33,067 nt of DNA from Anaerolineae bacterium. Lineage in GTDB: Bacteria > Chloroflexota > Anaerolineae > JBHIDP01. The stretch covers positions 1-33,067 of the forward strand of contig JBHIDP010000003.1 in the NCBI GenBank assembly GCA_046760185.1, written 5' to 3'. Below the pieces are notes generated by a model. It was not told where the DNA came from. It worked only from the letters and a program-made list of their open reading frames with translations, and did no database searches. Position numbers and translations under genes: made by a program. Below, piece by piece: positions 26,940-33,067 of this stretch; position 1 is the stretch's first letter, and each line of letters opens with the position of its first letter.

Positions 26940-27707
26940 CTATCCGAACCGGCCGGTCACGTAATCTTCCGTCCGTTTGTCGCTGGGGCGGGTGAAGATC
27001 TGCTCGGCCGGCCCGTGCTCGATGAGGTCCCCCATCAGGAAAAAGGCAGCCTGATCGGCGACACGGCTGGCCTGTTGCACATTGTGAGGCACGATAACGA
27101 TAGTGTAGTTCTGTTTCAGCTCCTGCAGCGAATCCTCCACTTTCAGGGTAGAGATCGGATCGAGGCCCGAGCAGGGCTCATCGAGAAGGATGACCTCCGG
27201 TTCTAGAGCCAGCACCCGGGCGATACAGAGGCGTTGCTGTTGACCTCCCGATAAGGCCCTGGCTGGCTGATGCAGTCGGTCTTTGACCTCATCCCAAAGA
27301 GCAGCCTGGCGCAGGGTCCTCTCCACTATCTCATCCAGTTGCCCCTTATCATTCATCCCCCCCAAACGTGGTCCATAGGTGATGTTCTCCCAGATGGTGC
27401 CCGGCAGGGCGATAGGCAGGGCAAAGACCATACCGACCCGCCGCCTCAGCTCCACCACGTCAACGCCCTCGGCGTAGATGTCCTGACCCTCCAGCAGGAC
27501 CCGCCCATCAACGTGGATCCCCTCGATCAAGTCATTGAGGCGGTTGAGGGTGCGCAGGAAGGTAGACTTGCCGCTCTTCGCCGGCCCGAAGACAGCCAGG
27601 ATTTCGTTAGCCCTGATCTCCAAGGTGATGTCGTTGAGGGCCCGAACTTTGTTATAGTAGATACTCAAATCGTCAATGGTGAACTTGGCTTCCTGGTTCG
27701 AGACCAT
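26940..27707 (-). CDS. pstB: Phosphate ABC transporter ATP-binding protein
   Basis: GPAKSGKST Walker [46 protein letters not shown] and the C-terminal [10 protein letters not shown]. Confidence 0.93.
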
Positions 27708-27899
27708 TTCAGGTATTTCTCGTTCTCTCAGTGCACCCTACTGTCCAACAGACAGGTCACATGGATGTCACGAACACCAGCAGATATGAGTTTGGGCAGG
27801 TACTTCCTGGAGCATTCGGCCAGAATTGTCTACTAGCATGGCTTTTGTACACCGCAGTGGAAACTGCATATGAACTGCCCTACTCTTCAAGCGAGCCCG

Positions 27900-28011
27900 A
27901 AACCCCCGTCGTTAAGACGGGGGAGGTTCCTCGCTGCCCCAGGGAAGTTTCAAACGATAGGCTCTCCTTTGGTCAGCGAGCAGGTTCCCACCGGCTAAAA
28001 GCCGGGGGTTT
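27900..28011. repeat. Inverted pair of hairpins resembling IS200/IS605 ends or REPs
   Basis: AAACCCCCGTCGTTAAGACGGGGGAGGTTCCTCGCTG (27900-27936) and the reverse complement of 27974-28011, AAACCCCCGGCTTTTAGCCGGTGGGAACCTGCTCGCTG. Confidence 0.6.
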
Positions 28012-28035
28012 GTCTCCAGCTTCCAGATGAGCTAG

Positions 28036-28122
28036 TCACTCGCTCTTCCCCTCCACCACCGCCATCTCCTCCTCTGTCAGCCCGTACAGCACGTACACGA
28101 TGAGGTCAAATGGCTGATCGGA
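28036..28122 (-). pseudogene. Remnant 3' tail of a Type IIG (Eco57I-like/N6-MTase) restriction-modification gene, copy A
   Basis: Reads SDQPFDLIVYVLYGLTEEEMAVVEGKSE* with no start codon, and is a direct repeat of 29248-29331. Confidence 0.7.
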
Positions 28123-28154
28123 GCAATGTAGGTCAGAGGAGCTTCCCCGGCACC

Positions 28155-29198
28155 TCATGCCCCATCTATTCGTTCCCTAACATACCGGGCGAAGCCGATG
28201 GGCAGGTACTCGATCTCTCCAAACAGACGCCGATATCTCTCCTCAGCCTCGGTGCCGGCCCCCTCCCTGTCCACGACAGTGACTGTCGGTCTCCGACCGC
28301 GCTGGCTCCAGGAATTGTACGTAGCCCGCTTGATCATGCACTTGATCTCCACATCGGCGTCAGCCAGCGAGTAACCGATGAAGACCACCCGATCCGCACG
28401 TGTTATCTTTTCCTCAGCGTTGCGCCAGACCTGTAGAAGCAATCCATTTGCGTAGTCCTTGAGCAACGTGGGAGTGATGATCAGAGCCTGGTAGCACAAA
28501 TGGCACCGAAGGCAGACTGCAGGCTCTTCTTCAAAGATCCGCAAAGTTCCCTTTTCGGCCAGGGTCACGTCAAGCGCCTGACAGTTCGGGCAATAGAGCC
28601 AGTTTAAAGAACCGTGCAGCTTGTATAAATCACGCGACGGCTCCGCCCGGTAAGCACGAGCAGGTTCGTAATAATCATCGGGGTACCAGTGGTAAAAGAG
28701 ACGAACGTCCACACCATAGTTCACCCGCTGCGGTCCGAACTCTTGCGCCAAAGCGTTGTCCACGATGATGTCGTAGTTGAGGGAGATGATGGTATCCTCC
28801 TCGGTCAGGGAGCGCACCAGGTCGAGGGTGGCGTGTCTATCCCTCTCCAGTCTCTGCAACGTGTCTTTGAGCAGGCGCGCGATCAGGTAGATCAGATCTT
28901 CACGTAGCTCTTGCACCTTCTGGAGCGGATAGTTGGCTGACAGAGGGCGATTCTGTGTTACGCACAGGTCGAGTTGACTCAAGACATCCTCCAGTCGCGG
29001 AAGGATGGCCTGACTACTTCGAGCGTCGGATGGGAGTGGCGAGCCCAGGTAAAAGTCCGATACGAACTTGCACACGTTTCGAATTCTGGGATCGTGGGCA
29101 AAGCGCTCGAATGCCAGGGGCAAGAAGTCGTTCATAAGTGGCGCTTGGGGAGCCACTGCCTTGGTCGCACCTGCTCCCAGAATGTACACGGTAGACAT
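28155..29198 (-). CDS. SIR2-family (SIR2_2-like) protein, putative NADase defence effector
   Basis: VYILGAGA, ISLNYD, YKLHGSLNW, a CPNC...CLRC zinc-binding pair, IITPT..K and VFIGYSL..AD. RBS AAGGAGG. Confidence 0.88.
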   Translation of the reverse strand: MSTVYILGAGATKAVAPQAPLMNDFLPLAFERFAHDPRIRNVCKFVSDFYLGSPLPSDARSSQAILPRLEDVLSQLDLCVTQNRPLSANYPLQKVQELREDLIYLIARLLKDTLQRLERDRHATLDLVRSLTEEDTIISLNYDIIVDNALAQEFGPQRVNYGVDVRLFYHWYPDDYYEPARAYRAEPSRDLYKLHGSLNWLYCPNCQALDVTLAEKGTLRIFEEEPAVCLRCHLCYQALIITPTLLKDYANGLLLQVWRNAEEKITRADRVVFIGYSLADADVEIKCMIKRATYNSWSQRGRRPTVTVVDREGAGTEAEERYRRLFGEIEYLPIGFARYVRERIDGA

Positions 29199-29247
29199 GC
29201 GCGCACCTCCTTGCTTCCTTAAGGCCCGACAGCGTTTTCCTGCCCAG

Positions 29248-29498
29248 CTAGCTTCTCCCCCCCACCACCGCTATCTCCTCCTCCGTCAGCCCATAGAGCC
29301 TGTACACGATCCGGTCAATGAGCCGATCCGTGGCCTCGATGCGGGCCAGCAGAGGTTTGAGCTTGGCCATTGAGTCCTCGAACTCGCCCTTAATCTTCTC
29401 CTGCGCCTCGCGCCCCTCCACGTCCCGCCCCATCCTCTTTCGGTTCTGGCTCAGCGCCCGCTGCATCTCCGACAGGGGTACTCCCAGTAGACCCGCAC
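29248..29498 (-). pseudogene. Remnant 3' part of a Type IIG restriction-modification gene, copy B
   Basis: EMQRALSQNRKRM...EFEDSMAKLKPLLARIEATDRLIDRIVYRLYGLTEEEIAVVGGRS*. A possible upstream continuation (VRVYWEYP) lies in another frame, suggesting a frameshift. Confidence 0.75.
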
Positions 29499-29582
29499 GT
29501 GGCTAATGTGGCGGACAAAGGGGCAACCGCACCAGGACGTAGGTTCAAGGAGATGGACAAATGTGGAATCCAGCACGGTGTG

Positions 29583-30716
29583 TCATAGGGAAGTGGGGAC
29601 CTGGTCTGACTCCTCCAACGAGACAGGTGCATCCCAAATATTATCTCGCTCTCTGATCTTGCGGGTGGGGCCACCCACACGCCAGATGAGGACATACTCA
29701 TGAGCCAGAGGTATGAAGTGTTCGATACTGTATCTGCGCCCGAACGATTTGACGTTATGCTGAGCTTTGATCAGGATCGGGTAGTCAGGGTCACCAAGTC
29801 TTGAGATTAAGTCTCTGAAGATGAAGTAGTACTTTCCCCTCTTTCGCACATCCCCAAGCAGGACTGCAAGATGCCCGCCGTTGGGTTCTAATGCCCTAAG
29901 CAGTCGTTTGCAAGCGCGTGCGAGATTTTCGATAAAGTCCTCGTACTTATGAATGTTACTCAGATCTCTCGGATCTTCCGAGTACTTTACAATGTCCCAA
30001 TATGGCGGATGGAAAAAAATAAAGTCGAACCCTGGTGGTATTTGTGAAGTTAGCACATCAAATCCATCTCGCAAGTCGCGCTGTAGACACTCTACTCCCA
30101 ATTCACGGCATACGTCACCTGTGGTTCCACTGCCAGCGGCTGGATCGAGAACGCGCTTGGCACCAAAGTGTGTGACCAACTCCTTGATCAGGTACCCGGA
30201 GCAGTTACCCGGATACTTGTGGTCACCATATGGTCCTCTATCAGGGTAAGCGACAATGGAGGTTAACATAGTGGCTGGTCTGATGCGCTCCCACTCAGAC
30301 AATCCGTTTTGGACCTGCTGTTCTTCCTGGGCATCGAGCACCCGCCAGCCGCTTCGCCCCTTGCTCCAGATGTGGAGGGGCTGCACTCTCTCGACATCTG
30401 TGAAGAAGATAAGAGTTCCGTATCTTGCATCGCGATACTGTTTCCAGAAGTCGTCAGTAAAGCACAGTTGAGAGTTGTAACGAGAACGAAGCGTATTAAT
30501 AGTTTCAGGAGTGAGATCTGGGAAGAATTGTGCCTCGTCAACAGTTGCACGTCCCAGAACAGGACCGGAGGTCAGTTTCAGCAGGACGGTATCGCCCTTT
30601 TCAATCTGGCCAAAAGGTGCAAGACGTTTTTTGCTGAGCCGAACATCTGCGGTCTTCTCACCGCTCAGTAGCAGGTCGAGGTAAGGCTGACGAAAAATAG
30701 CTAGATGAACCGTCAT
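29583..30716 (-). CDS. ASCH (PUA-like) domain fused to an amino-(N6A/N4C)-DNA methyltransferase
   Basis: N-terminal HLAI..PY..LLLSGEKTADVR...GD.V (ASCH). C-terminal YPGNCSG, VLDPAAGSGTT (motif I) and FFHPPYW (motif IV). ATGA-coupled to the upstream gene. Confidence 0.8.
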   Translation of the reverse strand: MTVHLAIFRQPYLDLLLSGEKTADVRLSKKRLAPFGQIEKGDTVLLKLTSGPVLGRATVDEAQFFPDLTPETINTLRSRYNSQLCFTDDFWKQYRDARYGTLIFFTDVERVQPLHIWSKGRSGWRVLDAQEEQQVQNGLSEWERIRPATMLTSIVAYPDRGPYGDHKYPGNCSGYLIKELVTHFGAKRVLDPAAGSGTTGDVCRELGVECLQRDLRDGFDVLTSQIPPGFDFIFFHPPYWDIVKYSEDPRDLSNIHKYEDFIENLARACKRLLRALEPNGGHLAVLLGDVRKRGKYYFIFRDLISRLGDPDYPILIKAQHNVKSFGRRYSIEHFIPLAHEYVLIWRVGGPTRKIRERDNIWDAPVSLEESDQVPTSL

Positions 30717-31930
30717 TGCTCTTTCACTTCACTCGGATAATGCCGCTGCAATTCTAAAGCGGGCGTCCCTCCCGTGTATGTGTATCGGATGAGTTCTAAC
30801 TGCTTCCACTGGGCGGGCGCATAGGGTCGCCGAGGGGTAACAAAATCCTTGGGCAGAGTGCTCTGAACATATTGGACCACGTCATCGGCGTAATCATGGG
30901 CCACGAAATAGGCATCTACCAAGCTGTAGTCTCCACCCGCCCGAGTATGAGCTACCCAGTCTACATACTTGATGAGTTGGTTTATGCCCTCCTCAGTTGC
31001 TACTTTGCCCTTCTTGATCTCGACAATCTTGTAGCGGACCACCGTGGGCGAAGCCTCTTGTGAGATCCTCTTCTCGACATACCCGAAAATGTCAATTCTG
31101 TCCATAAACTGGACTGGCTTTTGGGGAGAGGCCGGGTACTGATTTGTCACATAGTCCCAATTGCCGAATATCCTAACTGCCTGTTCTTGCCTCTGTGTAA
31201 GGGCGTTGGTCAGCCATGCATGTACCAAGGCTTCGTGACCAACAGAGCCATCCCGTTTAGCATGTTTCCTAATAAGCCCATCGAGGTCAATCTGATAACG
31301 CGTGAGATCATGCTCGCGAACCCTGGTGTGAATCTGTTCGGCTCGTGAATCGAAGACCTGGTCAGGAAACGGATACCCGTTGAGAATATCTTCGTTGCGC
31401 CGGAGTAGCAAATCAAGTATGACTTGAGTCTCTTCGTCTTCCATCTGAATAAAGCTGACTCTCTCGAAGATGCGGAGAGAGCGAACGACACCCTTGACAT
31501 CGCTTGCCAACACCTCGTCCATGTCCAGACCAGTCTTGAAGAAGTAGGGGTGCGGCTCAAAGAAGATTACCCAGCGCAGATTCTCCTCTCCATTCTCTCG
31601 CCACAGGTAGTCATCGGGGTTCTGTGGTGTGGTAGCGTGGGGAAACGAGGCACCTGGATAGTTGGACAAGGCAGCTAGCTGCTGTTCTTCTACATCGAAG
31701 CCAACAACCCGACCAACACCATAAATATTACGACCGAGGAAGAAGAACACCAACGCGCCAGGACGGACCGTAACATAGTCCGCCAAGATTCTTTCTCGAG
31801 TATGGTGCCAAGAATCTTCCGAAGGACGCTCGATTAGAGTCCCATAGGCACCGTACCTGCAGTACAACTCTAGTTTTTCCCGACCCGCGCGCTGTTCTAT
31901 AGTGCCGAGGTTCATGATGTAACCAGACAT
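30713..31930 (-). CDS. Putative restriction endonuclease: EVE/PUA-like N-terminal domain plus C-terminal PD-(D/E)XK nuclease
   Basis: N-terminal VRPGALVFFF..RNIYGVGRV. C-terminal HEA...RIDIFGY...IVEIKK...QLIKYVDW (NucS/Mrr-like D-ExK plus QxxxY). ATG 31930 follows GAGGA; the ORF can extend to 31954. Confidence 0.65.
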   Translation of the reverse strand: MSGYIMNLGTIEQRAGREKLELYCRYGAYGTLIERPSEDSWHHTRERILADYVTVRPGALVFFFLGRNIYGVGRVVGFDVEEQQLAALSNYPGASFPHATTPQNPDDYLWRENGEENLRWVIFFEPHPYFFKTGLDMDEVLASDVKGVVRSLRIFERVSFIQMEDEETQVILDLLLRRNEDILNGYPFPDQVFDSRAEQIHTRVREHDLTRYQIDLDGLIRKHAKRDGSVGHEALVHAWLTNALTQRQEQAVRIFGNWDYVTNQYPASPQKPVQFMDRIDIFGYVEKRISQEASPTVVRYKIVEIKKGKVATEEGINQLIKYVDWVAHTRAGGDYSLVDAYFVAHDYADDVVQYVQSTLPKDFVTPRRPYAPAQWKQLELIRYTYTGGTPALELQRHYPSEVKEQ

Positions 31931-31958
31931 AGTGCTGCTTCCTCTTTCTGACACGAAG

Positions 31959-32831
31959 TTAGTAGTTCAAAATGACAAGTTCCGGGATGCTACCGCGTCC
32001 ATCCCCCTTACAGCTTATGGCACGTGTTGCAGAAACGACCTCTTGCCTATAATCAACATAGAGTTGTCGGATGAAGGAGGTGCAGGAATTACTAAGCATG
32101 ACAATGCAGCCTTTCCGATCGAGTTGCCGAAATACTTCCGCTAGACGGCGCTGATCATCTTTGTCAAAATCGTCCCTCGTATAACTGGTAAATGAAGCCG
32201 TCTCACTAAGCGGGTGATACGGCGGATCAAGGTAAAGAAAATCGCCCGGGCCAGCCCACTCAACACACCGTTCGAAGTCCTCTGAACGAAGTTCAACCCC
32301 CTGAAGGGCCTGACTGACTGCCCGCAGATTGTCCTCGTCACAGATCGTGGGGTTCTTGTAACTGCCGAAGGGCACATTGAATTGTCCTCGGCTGTTCACT
32401 CGGTACAGGCCATTGTAGCAGGTCCGGTTCAGGAAAATCGTGCGGGCAGCCCGCTCGACCGGACTGCGTTCGTTGAAATCTGTTTTCCTGTCCCATCCTC
32501 TGATTTCGTAGAAATAGCTCTTCTCCGTCTTGTGAACTTCATGGTGGCGGAGCTCTTCGATCAACTCATCAACCCGGTCCCGGATGATTTCGTAACATGT
32601 CATTAATTCTTGGGTCAAGTCATTGAGAATGACTCCATCAGCAATGAGACCCTCATTGCGAAGGTAGAAGAACACAGCCCCCCCACCAACGAAGGGTTCA
32701 ATGTACTTGTTGAAATGAGAGGGAAACAATGGCCCAAACTGCTCCAACAGTTGGCCTTTGCCACCCGCCCACTTTACAACAGGGGTGGCCTGGAGTCTGA
32801 GGTCTAGTTGTGCAACTTCAACACTCATCAT
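31959..32831 (-). CDS. dam: Dam/DpnM-family DNA adenine methyltransferase
   Basis: KWAGGKGQL, YIEPFVGGGAVFF, LNRTCYNGLYRVN..G.FNVPFG, YLDPPY and MLSNS. Confidence 0.93.
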   Translation of the reverse strand: MMSVEVAQLDLRLQATPVVKWAGGKGQLLEQFGPLFPSHFNKYIEPFVGGGAVFFYLRNEGLIADGVILNDLTQELMTCYEIIRDRVDELIEELRHHEVHKTEKSYFYEIRGWDRKTDFNERSPVERAARTIFLNRTCYNGLYRVNSRGQFNVPFGSYKNPTICDEDNLRAVSQALQGVELRSEDFERCVEWAGPGDFLYLDPPYHPLSETASFTSYTRDDFDKDDQRRLAEVFRQLDRKGCIVMLSNSCTSFIRQLYVDYRQEVVSATRAISCKGDGRGSIPELVILNY

Positions 32832-33014: not shown

Positions 33015-33067
33015 CTACCACTGCCTTCTCCGTCTGAACCGGCTTCGGATCAGGGTAGCCACCAGGG
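33015..33067 (-). CDS. pstA: 3' end of a probable phosphate ABC permease PstA (cut by the window edge)
   Basis: Reads LVATLIRSRFRRRRQW*, a hydrophobic-then-basic C-terminus typical of PstA. Same strand as pstB and upstream of it. Only 16 aa are visible. Confidence 0.6.
   Translation of the reverse strand, partial: LVATLIRSRFRRRRQW

Follow-up and report, generated by a model that had tools for sequence, protein, structure and literature searches.

Orphaned 3′ ends of Type IIG restriction genes bracket a SIR2 gene in an Anaerolineae genome and probably mark the seams of a small exchangeable unit

We have studied a SIR2-family gene of an Anaerolineae bacterium that lies between two direct repeats on a contig of 33,067 nucleotides (nt; JBHIDP010000003.1). 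The whole of this contig, C3 of a metagenome-assembled genome (MAG) comprising 377 contigs and 87.9% complete, is the window of the analysis. Each repeat is an orphaned 3′ end of a Type IIG restriction-modification (R-M) gene, and we call these ends tails. We consider it probable, at about two chances in three, that a small mobile unit, exchanged by recombination between tails, has its seams there. The repeats exist, arrays of such tails are common, and one and the same SIR2 cargo is found in three contexts that are unrelated, its homology ending in or at the tails. The exchange of cassettes appears supported in its outcome, while its mechanism is one that we infer from the sequences.

All of the features of interest are encoded on the minus strand. 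Tail A (28036-28122) comprises the last ~28 codons and the stop codon of a Type IIG gene (...LYGLTEEE.AVVEG...). Tail B (29248-29504) is a 3′ remnant of ~84 codons and a stop codon, and is repeated as tail A over 29248-29331 only. The two form direct repeats in which 66 of 84 aligned bases are identical. The local alignment score of the pair is 49; no other place in the window exceeds 15, and none of 20 shuffled versions of the window exceeds 16. Both translate to the motif ...IVY.LYGLTEEE.AVV.G..., and both match the PADLOC Type IIG model PDLC03609 solely at its extreme C-terminus (the last 31-46 positions). Tail B gives the longer match (positions 1016-1061 of 1066, E 4.1e-7), and tail A matches positions 1033-1063 (E 1.3e-3). 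Tail A lies inside an open reading frame (ORF) of 40 amino acids (aa; 28036-28158), the ATG of which overlaps the SIR2 stop codon, and tail B inside an ORF of 72 aa (29248-29466) with an open frame of 84 aa. Neither ORF contains a Pfam domain, and the methylase, recognition and nuclease domains of an intact Type IIG gene are not present in them. With frames of only 40 and 72 aa neither is a gene, and we regard both as remnants. Window positions 29504-29255 match the end of a Type IIG gene in the relative G025 (loci L004 and L037) with 87.6% identity over 251 nt, stopping at 29504, so that tail B is the longer remnant.

These results bear out a preliminary description of the stretch, which had reported diverged same-strand direct repeats around the SIR2 gene, had placed neither copy in an intact gene, and had read the shared motif as the C-terminus of Type IIG proteins. 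It had further claimed that many of the differences between the copies fall at third codon positions, and here the data do not agree. The 16 substitutions are distributed as three first, six second and seven third positions, and just three codons differ in a purely synonymous manner, so that third positions are not clearly over-represented. In the same 87-nt frame that was used to compare tails within and between arrays the identity of A and B is 74%, which is the level found between genomes.

Motif scans of the genome failed to find an intact Type IIG gene with this tail and reported two tails only. Such scans undercount decayed copies, and a third, frameshifted tail was found by nucleotide match at C23:18855-18903, where it is accompanied by a DUF3800 gene and an SLFN_AlbA_2 gene. 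The same contig carries the N-terminal remnant of a Type IIG gene (C23:17194-17594) that is 85% identical to the gene at locus L066, described below.

The SIR2 gene (28155-29198) encodes 347 aa and passes the Pfam model SIR2_2 with 31.3 bits against a cut-off of 24.5 (E 2.5e-7, residues 136-317). Its best PADLOC match is Aga_SIR2, the model for SIR2 proteins associated with prokaryotic Argonautes (E 9.8e-10). The translation contains GAG, NYD and HG motifs, which we take to be the putative residues for the binding of nicotinamide adenine dinucleotide (NAD) and catalysis, together with two CxxC pairs. A stand-alone SIR2_2 protein is, from knowledge of the family, presumably an NAD-depleting effector of defence, and it is plausible that this cargo acts as an NAD-consuming defence effector. 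The gene was found in none of 60 relatives, all from other families. A broader collection of SIR2 relatives comprised 59 loci (21 from genomes and 38 from metagenomes), four of which are close homologues with 85-89% aa identity: L043, in a MAG of Anaerolineae, and L064, L065 and L066, which are one locus on three metagenome contigs. Nineteen distant homologues had no partner gene common to their neighbourhoods, and some distant homologues adjoin HsdM or McrBC. In a MAG of candidate division KSB1 (L060, 3-5137), another distant homologue, with 28% aa identity, begins 3 nt past an Eco57I-type gene of 1329 aa, and an AbiEi gene comes next; the tail repeat was not detected there.

Is the SIR2 gene bracketed by tails in its other locations, and if so, where does the similarity end? 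True tails are present in 4 of the 59 loci, namely in the four close homologues and nowhere else. Tails are lacking in the 55 distant loci (at most 38% identity); pattern matches in L059 and L097 were rejected because the motif is absent. By blastn, L043 aligns with window positions 29343-28126 with 90.1% nt identity over 1222 nt, and L064, L065 and L066 with positions 29306-28050 with 85.9% nt identity over 1261 nt. Junction alignments (blastn and MAFFT) thus delimit a shared SIR2 segment at 28050-29343, whose ends we interpret as recombination seams. Breakpoints within the repeats are what the preliminary description had anticipated for exchange, and the L043 and L066 segments do begin in tail B and end in tail A (L066) or at its first base (L043). 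Three of the four breakpoints are inside tails and the fourth is at the first base of tail A. On the upstream side, the homology with L043 begins inside tail B, ~32 codons before its stop, and that with L066 begins inside tail B at the YGL codons. The latter breakpoint bears a 9-nt tandem duplication, reading YGLYGL, that looks like the scar of a crossover. On the downstream side, the homology with L066 is continuous with SIR2 until near the end of tail A (window position 28050); that with L043 ceases at the first base of tail A, and L043 has no downstream tail. Between the stop of tail B and the start of SIR2 there is a leader of 49 nt (29199-29247), which contains a Shine-Dalgarno-like AAGGAGG. 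It is conserved in the three-way alignment with L043 and L066 and travels along with the cassette.

The flanks of the segment are unrelated among the three contexts. In the window the upstream neighbour is an ASCH-methylase gene. In L043 there is a GmrSD_N gene with three further tail copies upstream, and arfB-like, UbiA and homoserine dehydrogenase genes downstream. In L066, the upstream side comprises an intact Type IIG gene of 940 aa and an unknown gene of 472 aa, together with a tail fragment and a tail; downstream there is a further tail, followed by a DUF4350 gene and, at a greater distance, a TIR_2 gene. When L043 was compared with our whole genome there was no nucleotide match besides the SIR2 segment, and the closest counterpart of its UbiA protein here has 39% identity. 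The genome of L043 is therefore distant, yet the segment is 90% identical, indicating that the segment has moved horizontally. Moreover, both tail pieces are nearer to the corresponding pieces in L066 or L043 (86-90%, continuous with SIR2) than A is to B. It follows that the bracket existed before the dispersal and moved together with its cargo.

Orphan tails are not confined to this locus. The tail was matched in 37 of the 60 relatives at E ≤ 1, and in 93 of 300 other genomes drawn from the class at E ≤ 0.001. The 300-genome survey provided 149 listed matches outside this genome, with 66 weaker matches left out. Among those listed, 70 are in frames of fewer than 260 aa, 78 end frames of at least 450 aa, and one is in a 375-aa frame. 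The long-frame genes that were scanned carry Eco57I/N6_Mtase/TaqI_C. There were 13 contigs with both kinds among the matches listed (eleven from the 300-genome survey, plus G042:C212 and G042:C200 from the 60 relatives), and in all 13 the orphan tails are downstream of the full-length Type IIG gene and co-oriented with it. This arrangement is absent from the window itself, where the body of the Type IIG gene has gone. Toxin-antitoxin, R-M or defence domains were present in ORFs adjoining short-frame tails in 10 of 20 fetched loci, whereas two of the 20 sit amid housekeeping genes.

L037/L004, with HicA/HicB, constitutes an eleventh locus in which toxin-antitoxin genes adjoin an orphan tail. 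At L004 (G025:C238, 563-2095) the HicB/HicA pair splits the Type IIG gene between its TaqI_C domain and its last 154 codons. This locus has a second direct repeat as well: behind the tail, the initial ~40 codons of hicB appear again, joined to a DUF433 segment; the starts of toxin-antitoxin genes can likewise act as seams.

We fetched ten arrays containing 23 inter-tail cassettes. In Anaerolineae, small genes for defence, toxin-antitoxin or unknown functions accumulate behind the stop codon of Type IIG genes, co-oriented, in the order gene-tail-cargo-tail-cargo-tail. The array tails are copies of the conserved last 15-100 codons of the Type IIG gene, one behind each cargo. Firm toxin-antitoxin or defence domains are found in 7 of the 23 cassettes (BrnT/CopG, PIN twice, TumE, HEPN_LA2681, MazF and GmrSD_N); one of the PIN cassettes carries insertion sequence (IS) insertions, and MazF is accompanied by a protease. 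Two cassettes give weak hits (HEPN_Swt1 and DUF4062), and the remaining 14 have neither firm nor weak toxin-antitoxin or defence Pfam hits, containing DUFs or no domain. Fifteen of 16 cargo genes with Pfam support are co-oriented with the tails, the exception being TumE in L102. At a further locus, L024, six tail copies of 90-208 nt are spaced 773-964 nt apart and alternate with HEPN/MNT, DUF4926/DUF6883, HicA and two PIN genes. Two arrays from different families, L102 and L104, have one cassette in common (73% over 905 nt), ending at a tail, with differing neighbouring cassettes. Across the ten arrays, the Type IIG genes resemble one another for the first 1.7-2 kb, have a divergent recognition domain and become similar once more at the tail. 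The length of the repeat varies from 40 to 295 nt, and the homology mostly ends within 6 nt of the end of the tail, extending up to 60 nt past it in a few cases. The distance from the SIR2 stop to tail A is 32 nt, and similarly tight spacing, 36-53 nt, is found in L103. The supposition of the preliminary description that orphan tails are not rare and stand beside defence genes is in keeping with these surveys, both for the adjoining ORFs and for the firm inter-tail cassettes.

Three further features of the arrays may be recorded. Five loci have a Schlafen/AlbA_2 gene (400-571 aa) behind the array's final tail, either immediately or at a distance of up to ~0.8 kb (L104, 6447-8111; L110, 6592-8292; L030, 426-2141; L040, 2585-3787; and, in this genome, L112 on C23, 4692-6101), four of the five genes also having HATPase_c_4; it may be a regular terminal member of tail islands. 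In L041 (G004:C105, 3674-4124) and in L043 (5380-5835) the tail array abuts an arfB-like gene with an RF-1 domain, with 71.5% nt identity, which suggests that this gene is a conserved chromosomal site for tail islands in different families. Lastly, in L036, L040 and L108, genes or fragments of IS200-type Y1 transposases are located 100-600 nt from orphan tails. Their presence may be due to chance or may reflect a link to single-strand transposition.

How might tails function in the movement of cargo? We envisage two steps. A first bracket would arise locally, by an insertion with duplication of the resident tail. Bracketed cargo could then be swapped, added or lost between arrays or genomes by means of the tails, without a dedicated recombinase, the tail providing the crossover site for general recombination, either homologous or based on microhomology. 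Nothing else is conserved between these otherwise dissimilar loci, and the tail would serve as the crossover site for that reason. In the window, a Type IIG gene would originally have been situated between the ASCH-methylase and SIR2 genes, its body later being deleted to leave the 84 codons of tail B. Transcription of the cargo would probably occur by read-through from the upstream methylase genes. The variation in repeat length, with homology ending close to the tail end, fits crossovers anywhere in the conserved gene end. No recombinase or transposase Pfam domain was found among 25 window ORFs scanned, nor was an integrase or transposase found in the cargo ORFs scanned in the ten arrays, apart from the IS insertions. 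DNA folding of eight tails revealed no hairpin propensity in seven (z −1.1 to +2.0), and the value of the eighth (z −2.1) is owed to a hairpin after the stop codon. Taken together, the variable breakpoints and repeat lengths and the absence of hairpin and integrase argue against a site-specific system and for general recombination. Of the proposal in the preliminary description that the tail is a recombination handle for cargo, the part that stands is the recurrence of cassettes with their seams in tails; general recombination is the mechanism that we propose for it.

The tails could alternatively be by-products of insertion accompanied by long duplication of the target, whereby an unknown recombinase-independent process places each cargo immediately behind a Type IIG gene and duplicates the last 50-300 bp of the target, and would then not be handles at all. 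A point for such a process is that within arrays the tails resemble one another and the tail of the resident gene. Their mean identity is 85.6% within arrays (30 pairs) and 71.1% between arrays (246 pairs), two tails without the anchor motif having been dropped from this comparison. Near-identical pairs are found in L025 (98.6% over 71 nt) and L027 (97% over 169 nt), and further pairs in L103 (88-94% over 103-132 nt) and L104 (87-93% over 136-234 nt). Repeats that are long and variable, with no mobility gene seen in the window, also recall the R-M insertions analysed by Furuta et al. (2010; PMC2853133). Yet tails A and B of the window are only 74-79% alike, a between-genome level, and their greater closeness to the L066 and L043 counterparts makes the bracket older than its dispersal and a companion of the cargo. 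The breakpoints in the three contexts fall at different positions in the tail, pointing to recombination after the bracket had formed. In the published class, moreover, R-M genes are the insert, whereas here the end of an R-M gene is the target. Long duplication may thus account for the origin of the bracket but not for the exchange, and as an explanation of the whole we consider it unlikely.

Plain decay would mean that two Type IIG genes, independent of each other, have eroded down to their final codons, with SIR2 merely caught between the wrecks. Type IIG genes do turn over fast, tail B is in fact what remains, in 84 codons, of a truncated gene, C23 bears both a frameshifted tail and an N-terminal remnant, and an intact gene with this tail was not found in the genome. 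We nevertheless judge this to be improbable, because random deletion would not repeatedly spare the last 15-100 codons (as in the 70 short-frame cases among the 149 matches listed), and because it leaves unexplained the downstream, co-oriented orphans on 13 of 13 contigs and the recurrence, in three contexts unrelated to one another, of one SIR2 segment set between pieces of tail. The placement of tail A 32 nt behind the SIR2 stop, with tight spacing recurring in L103, also speaks against it. A site-specific system acting on tail DNA, whether a recombinase (integron-like or of another kind) or a trans-acting Y1 transposase of the IS200/RAYT type, would suit the integron-like layout of co-oriented cargo of ~1 kb with many toxin-antitoxin genes, and the Y1_Tnp genes adjoining tails in three loci; the contigs are short. 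Against it stand the differing crossover positions and repeat lengths, tails conserved in a coding pattern with no hairpin in seven of the eight folded, and the lack of an integrase Pfam hit in the window or in the array cargo ORFs scanned. We give it marginally less credence again than decay. A role for the tails as the ends of silent spare target-recognition-domain cassettes, switching Type IIG specificity by phase variation, might have been expected from genes that diverge in the recognition domain and converge at the tail, and a cassette spacing of ~0.8-1.6 kb would suit such a domain. However, TaqI_C is present in 0 of the 23 inter-tail cassettes, whose cargo (toxins, HEPN, GmrSD, SIR2 and unknowns) has its own starts, and the repeats are direct rather than inverted with no recombinase alongside. 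This idea was rejected on cargo content and we find it very hard to credit.

A number of observations weigh against the exchange of tail-bracketed cassettes. The likeness of tails within arrays fits local tail duplication or gene conversion better than the import of foreign tails. With 84 nt at 79% identity and exact runs of ~11 nt, A and B form a poor RecA-type substrate for recombination with each other. Enrichment near defence genes is expected under decay too, because Type IIG genes live in defence islands, and a handful of the 70 listed short-frame tails are near contig ends and are possibly cut long genes. That the process is free of an integrase is not provable here, resting as it does on no recombinase having been seen in short contigs. 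With such contigs and a MAG that is 87.9% complete, a recombinase acting in trans could lie outside the scanned ORFs, and the Y1 transposase genes do adjoin tails in three loci. No A-B joint or circle junction was found in the contigs of four sequencing runs, which are from one study and are all possible sources of this DNA, but contigs are blind to rare variants; short contigs of these runs stop inside tail B (29291-29299) and at a dispersed repeat (27912/27970), which is usual for assemblies at repeats. Among the 60 relatives, all of other families, there was no genome with an empty site, so that the direction of change, whether gain or loss, is inferred.

The tail arrays can be compared with several known systems. 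At the 3′ ends of transfer RNA (tRNA) and transfer-messenger RNA (tmRNA) genes, integrative elements restore the gene end at each insertion and leave old copies as direct repeats; these elements encode an integrase of the tyrosine or serine type, and their recombination takes place at a fixed core. The orphan tails are similar in being always downstream of the intact gene and co-oriented with it, but the cargo units are of 0.4-2 kb with no integrase seen, and the crossover points vary, falling at different codons. Integron arrays, and clusters of attC sites lacking integron-integrases (CALINs), are composed of co-oriented and mostly promoterless single-gene or toxin-antitoxin cassettes behind one anchor. 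Tail arrays likewise stack co-oriented cassettes behind one anchor, with read-through expression likely. They differ in that no IntI was seen in the 25 window ORFs or the array cargo ORFs, on short contigs, and no attC hairpin, and the repeat is the end of a protein-coding gene, conserved at the amino-acid level and variable in length. In the hotspots of defence islands, cargo varies between conserved flanking genes and is exchanged by general recombination. Tail arrays share with them cargo that differs between genomes, shared flanks and, as we propose, exchange by general recombination; here, however, the flank is only ~50-250 bp, is part of a defence gene, and is reiterated so as to provide arms for each cassette.

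A further parallel is provided by Furuta, Abe and Kobayashi (2010, Nucleic Acids Research; PMC2853133). In their class, long and variable direct repeats of more than 30 bp flank an inserted R-M unit without a mobility gene. The repeats often overlap the 3′ end of a gene, and the repeat is the target, seen once in the empty-site genome; the inserts are below 20 kb and contain R and M genes. The window resembles this class, with 84-nt direct repeats, a 1.1-kb insert and no transposase or integrase. It departs from it in that what is repeated, as the target, is the 3′ end of the R-M gene and that the cargo (SIR2, toxin-antitoxin, HEPN, GmrSD) is not of the R-M kind, in serial insertions with up to 5-6 tail copies, and in a bracketed unit that recurs in distant genomes, with no empty-site genome found. 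Our literature search, whose coverage did not extend to subscription journals, found no published description of Type IIG tail arrays.

The genes around the cassette are also on the minus strand. Upstream and co-oriented are a Dam-family methylase gene (31959-32831; Pfam, PADLOC, NCBIfam), a gene for a 413-aa protein of no known family (30713-31954), and the ASCH plus N6_N4 methylase gene (29583-30716; Pfam, PADLOC). The start and stop of the middle gene overlap its neighbours, both of them DNA methylase genes. Its product had no match in Pfam, PADLOC, NCBIfam or PDB sequences, and it is a candidate for a restriction endonuclease from a family not yet described. Between the stop of the upstream methylase and the point of truncation of the Type IIG remnant there is a 78-nt junction (29505-29582) for which no homology was found and which is not repeated elsewhere in the genome. 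On the downstream side, a dispersed structured repeat of ~195 nt (27833-28027) begins 8 nt past the tail A stop, and beyond it is a PstB-like ABC ATPase gene (27707-26940). The remainder of the contig, which ends at 33067, contains housekeeping genes. The dispersed repeat has three GC-rich hairpins with variable loop length and matches no Rfam family. Copies with 95% identity adjoin unrelated genes at C7:28147-28285, C83:4299-4544 and C152:4594-4815. As these sit without tails, the repeat was rejected as a carrier of gene tails and is regarded as incidental. Rfam gave one sub-threshold chance match only over 27000-30000, and a scan for promoters and terminators over 27600-29800 gave no promoter-like and one terminator-like site, both within shuffle expectation.

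The tails have a practical consequence for annotation, in that about half of the tail matches listed in the class do not represent genes, and breaks in assemblies tend to occur at tails. More broadly, it is a question how defence islands gather unrelated small systems without visible mobile-element genes, and a reiterated short gene end offers a concrete and testable route. Such a route predicts new defence and toxin-antitoxin genes between orphan Type IIG tails, recA-dependent exchange of cassettes, and co-transcription of the cassettes with the restriction gene. We put forward tentatively, and with rather more doubt than confidence, the wider proposal that Type IIG tails are a recombinase-free docking and exchange site, at which any small gene bracketed by two tails becomes a cassette that can stack behind whichever Type IIG gene, be read through, and pass between distant bacteria by ordinary recombination. 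If true, the tails would be a functional analogue of the integron built from the end of a protein-coding gene, and a mechanism for the self-assembly of defence islands.

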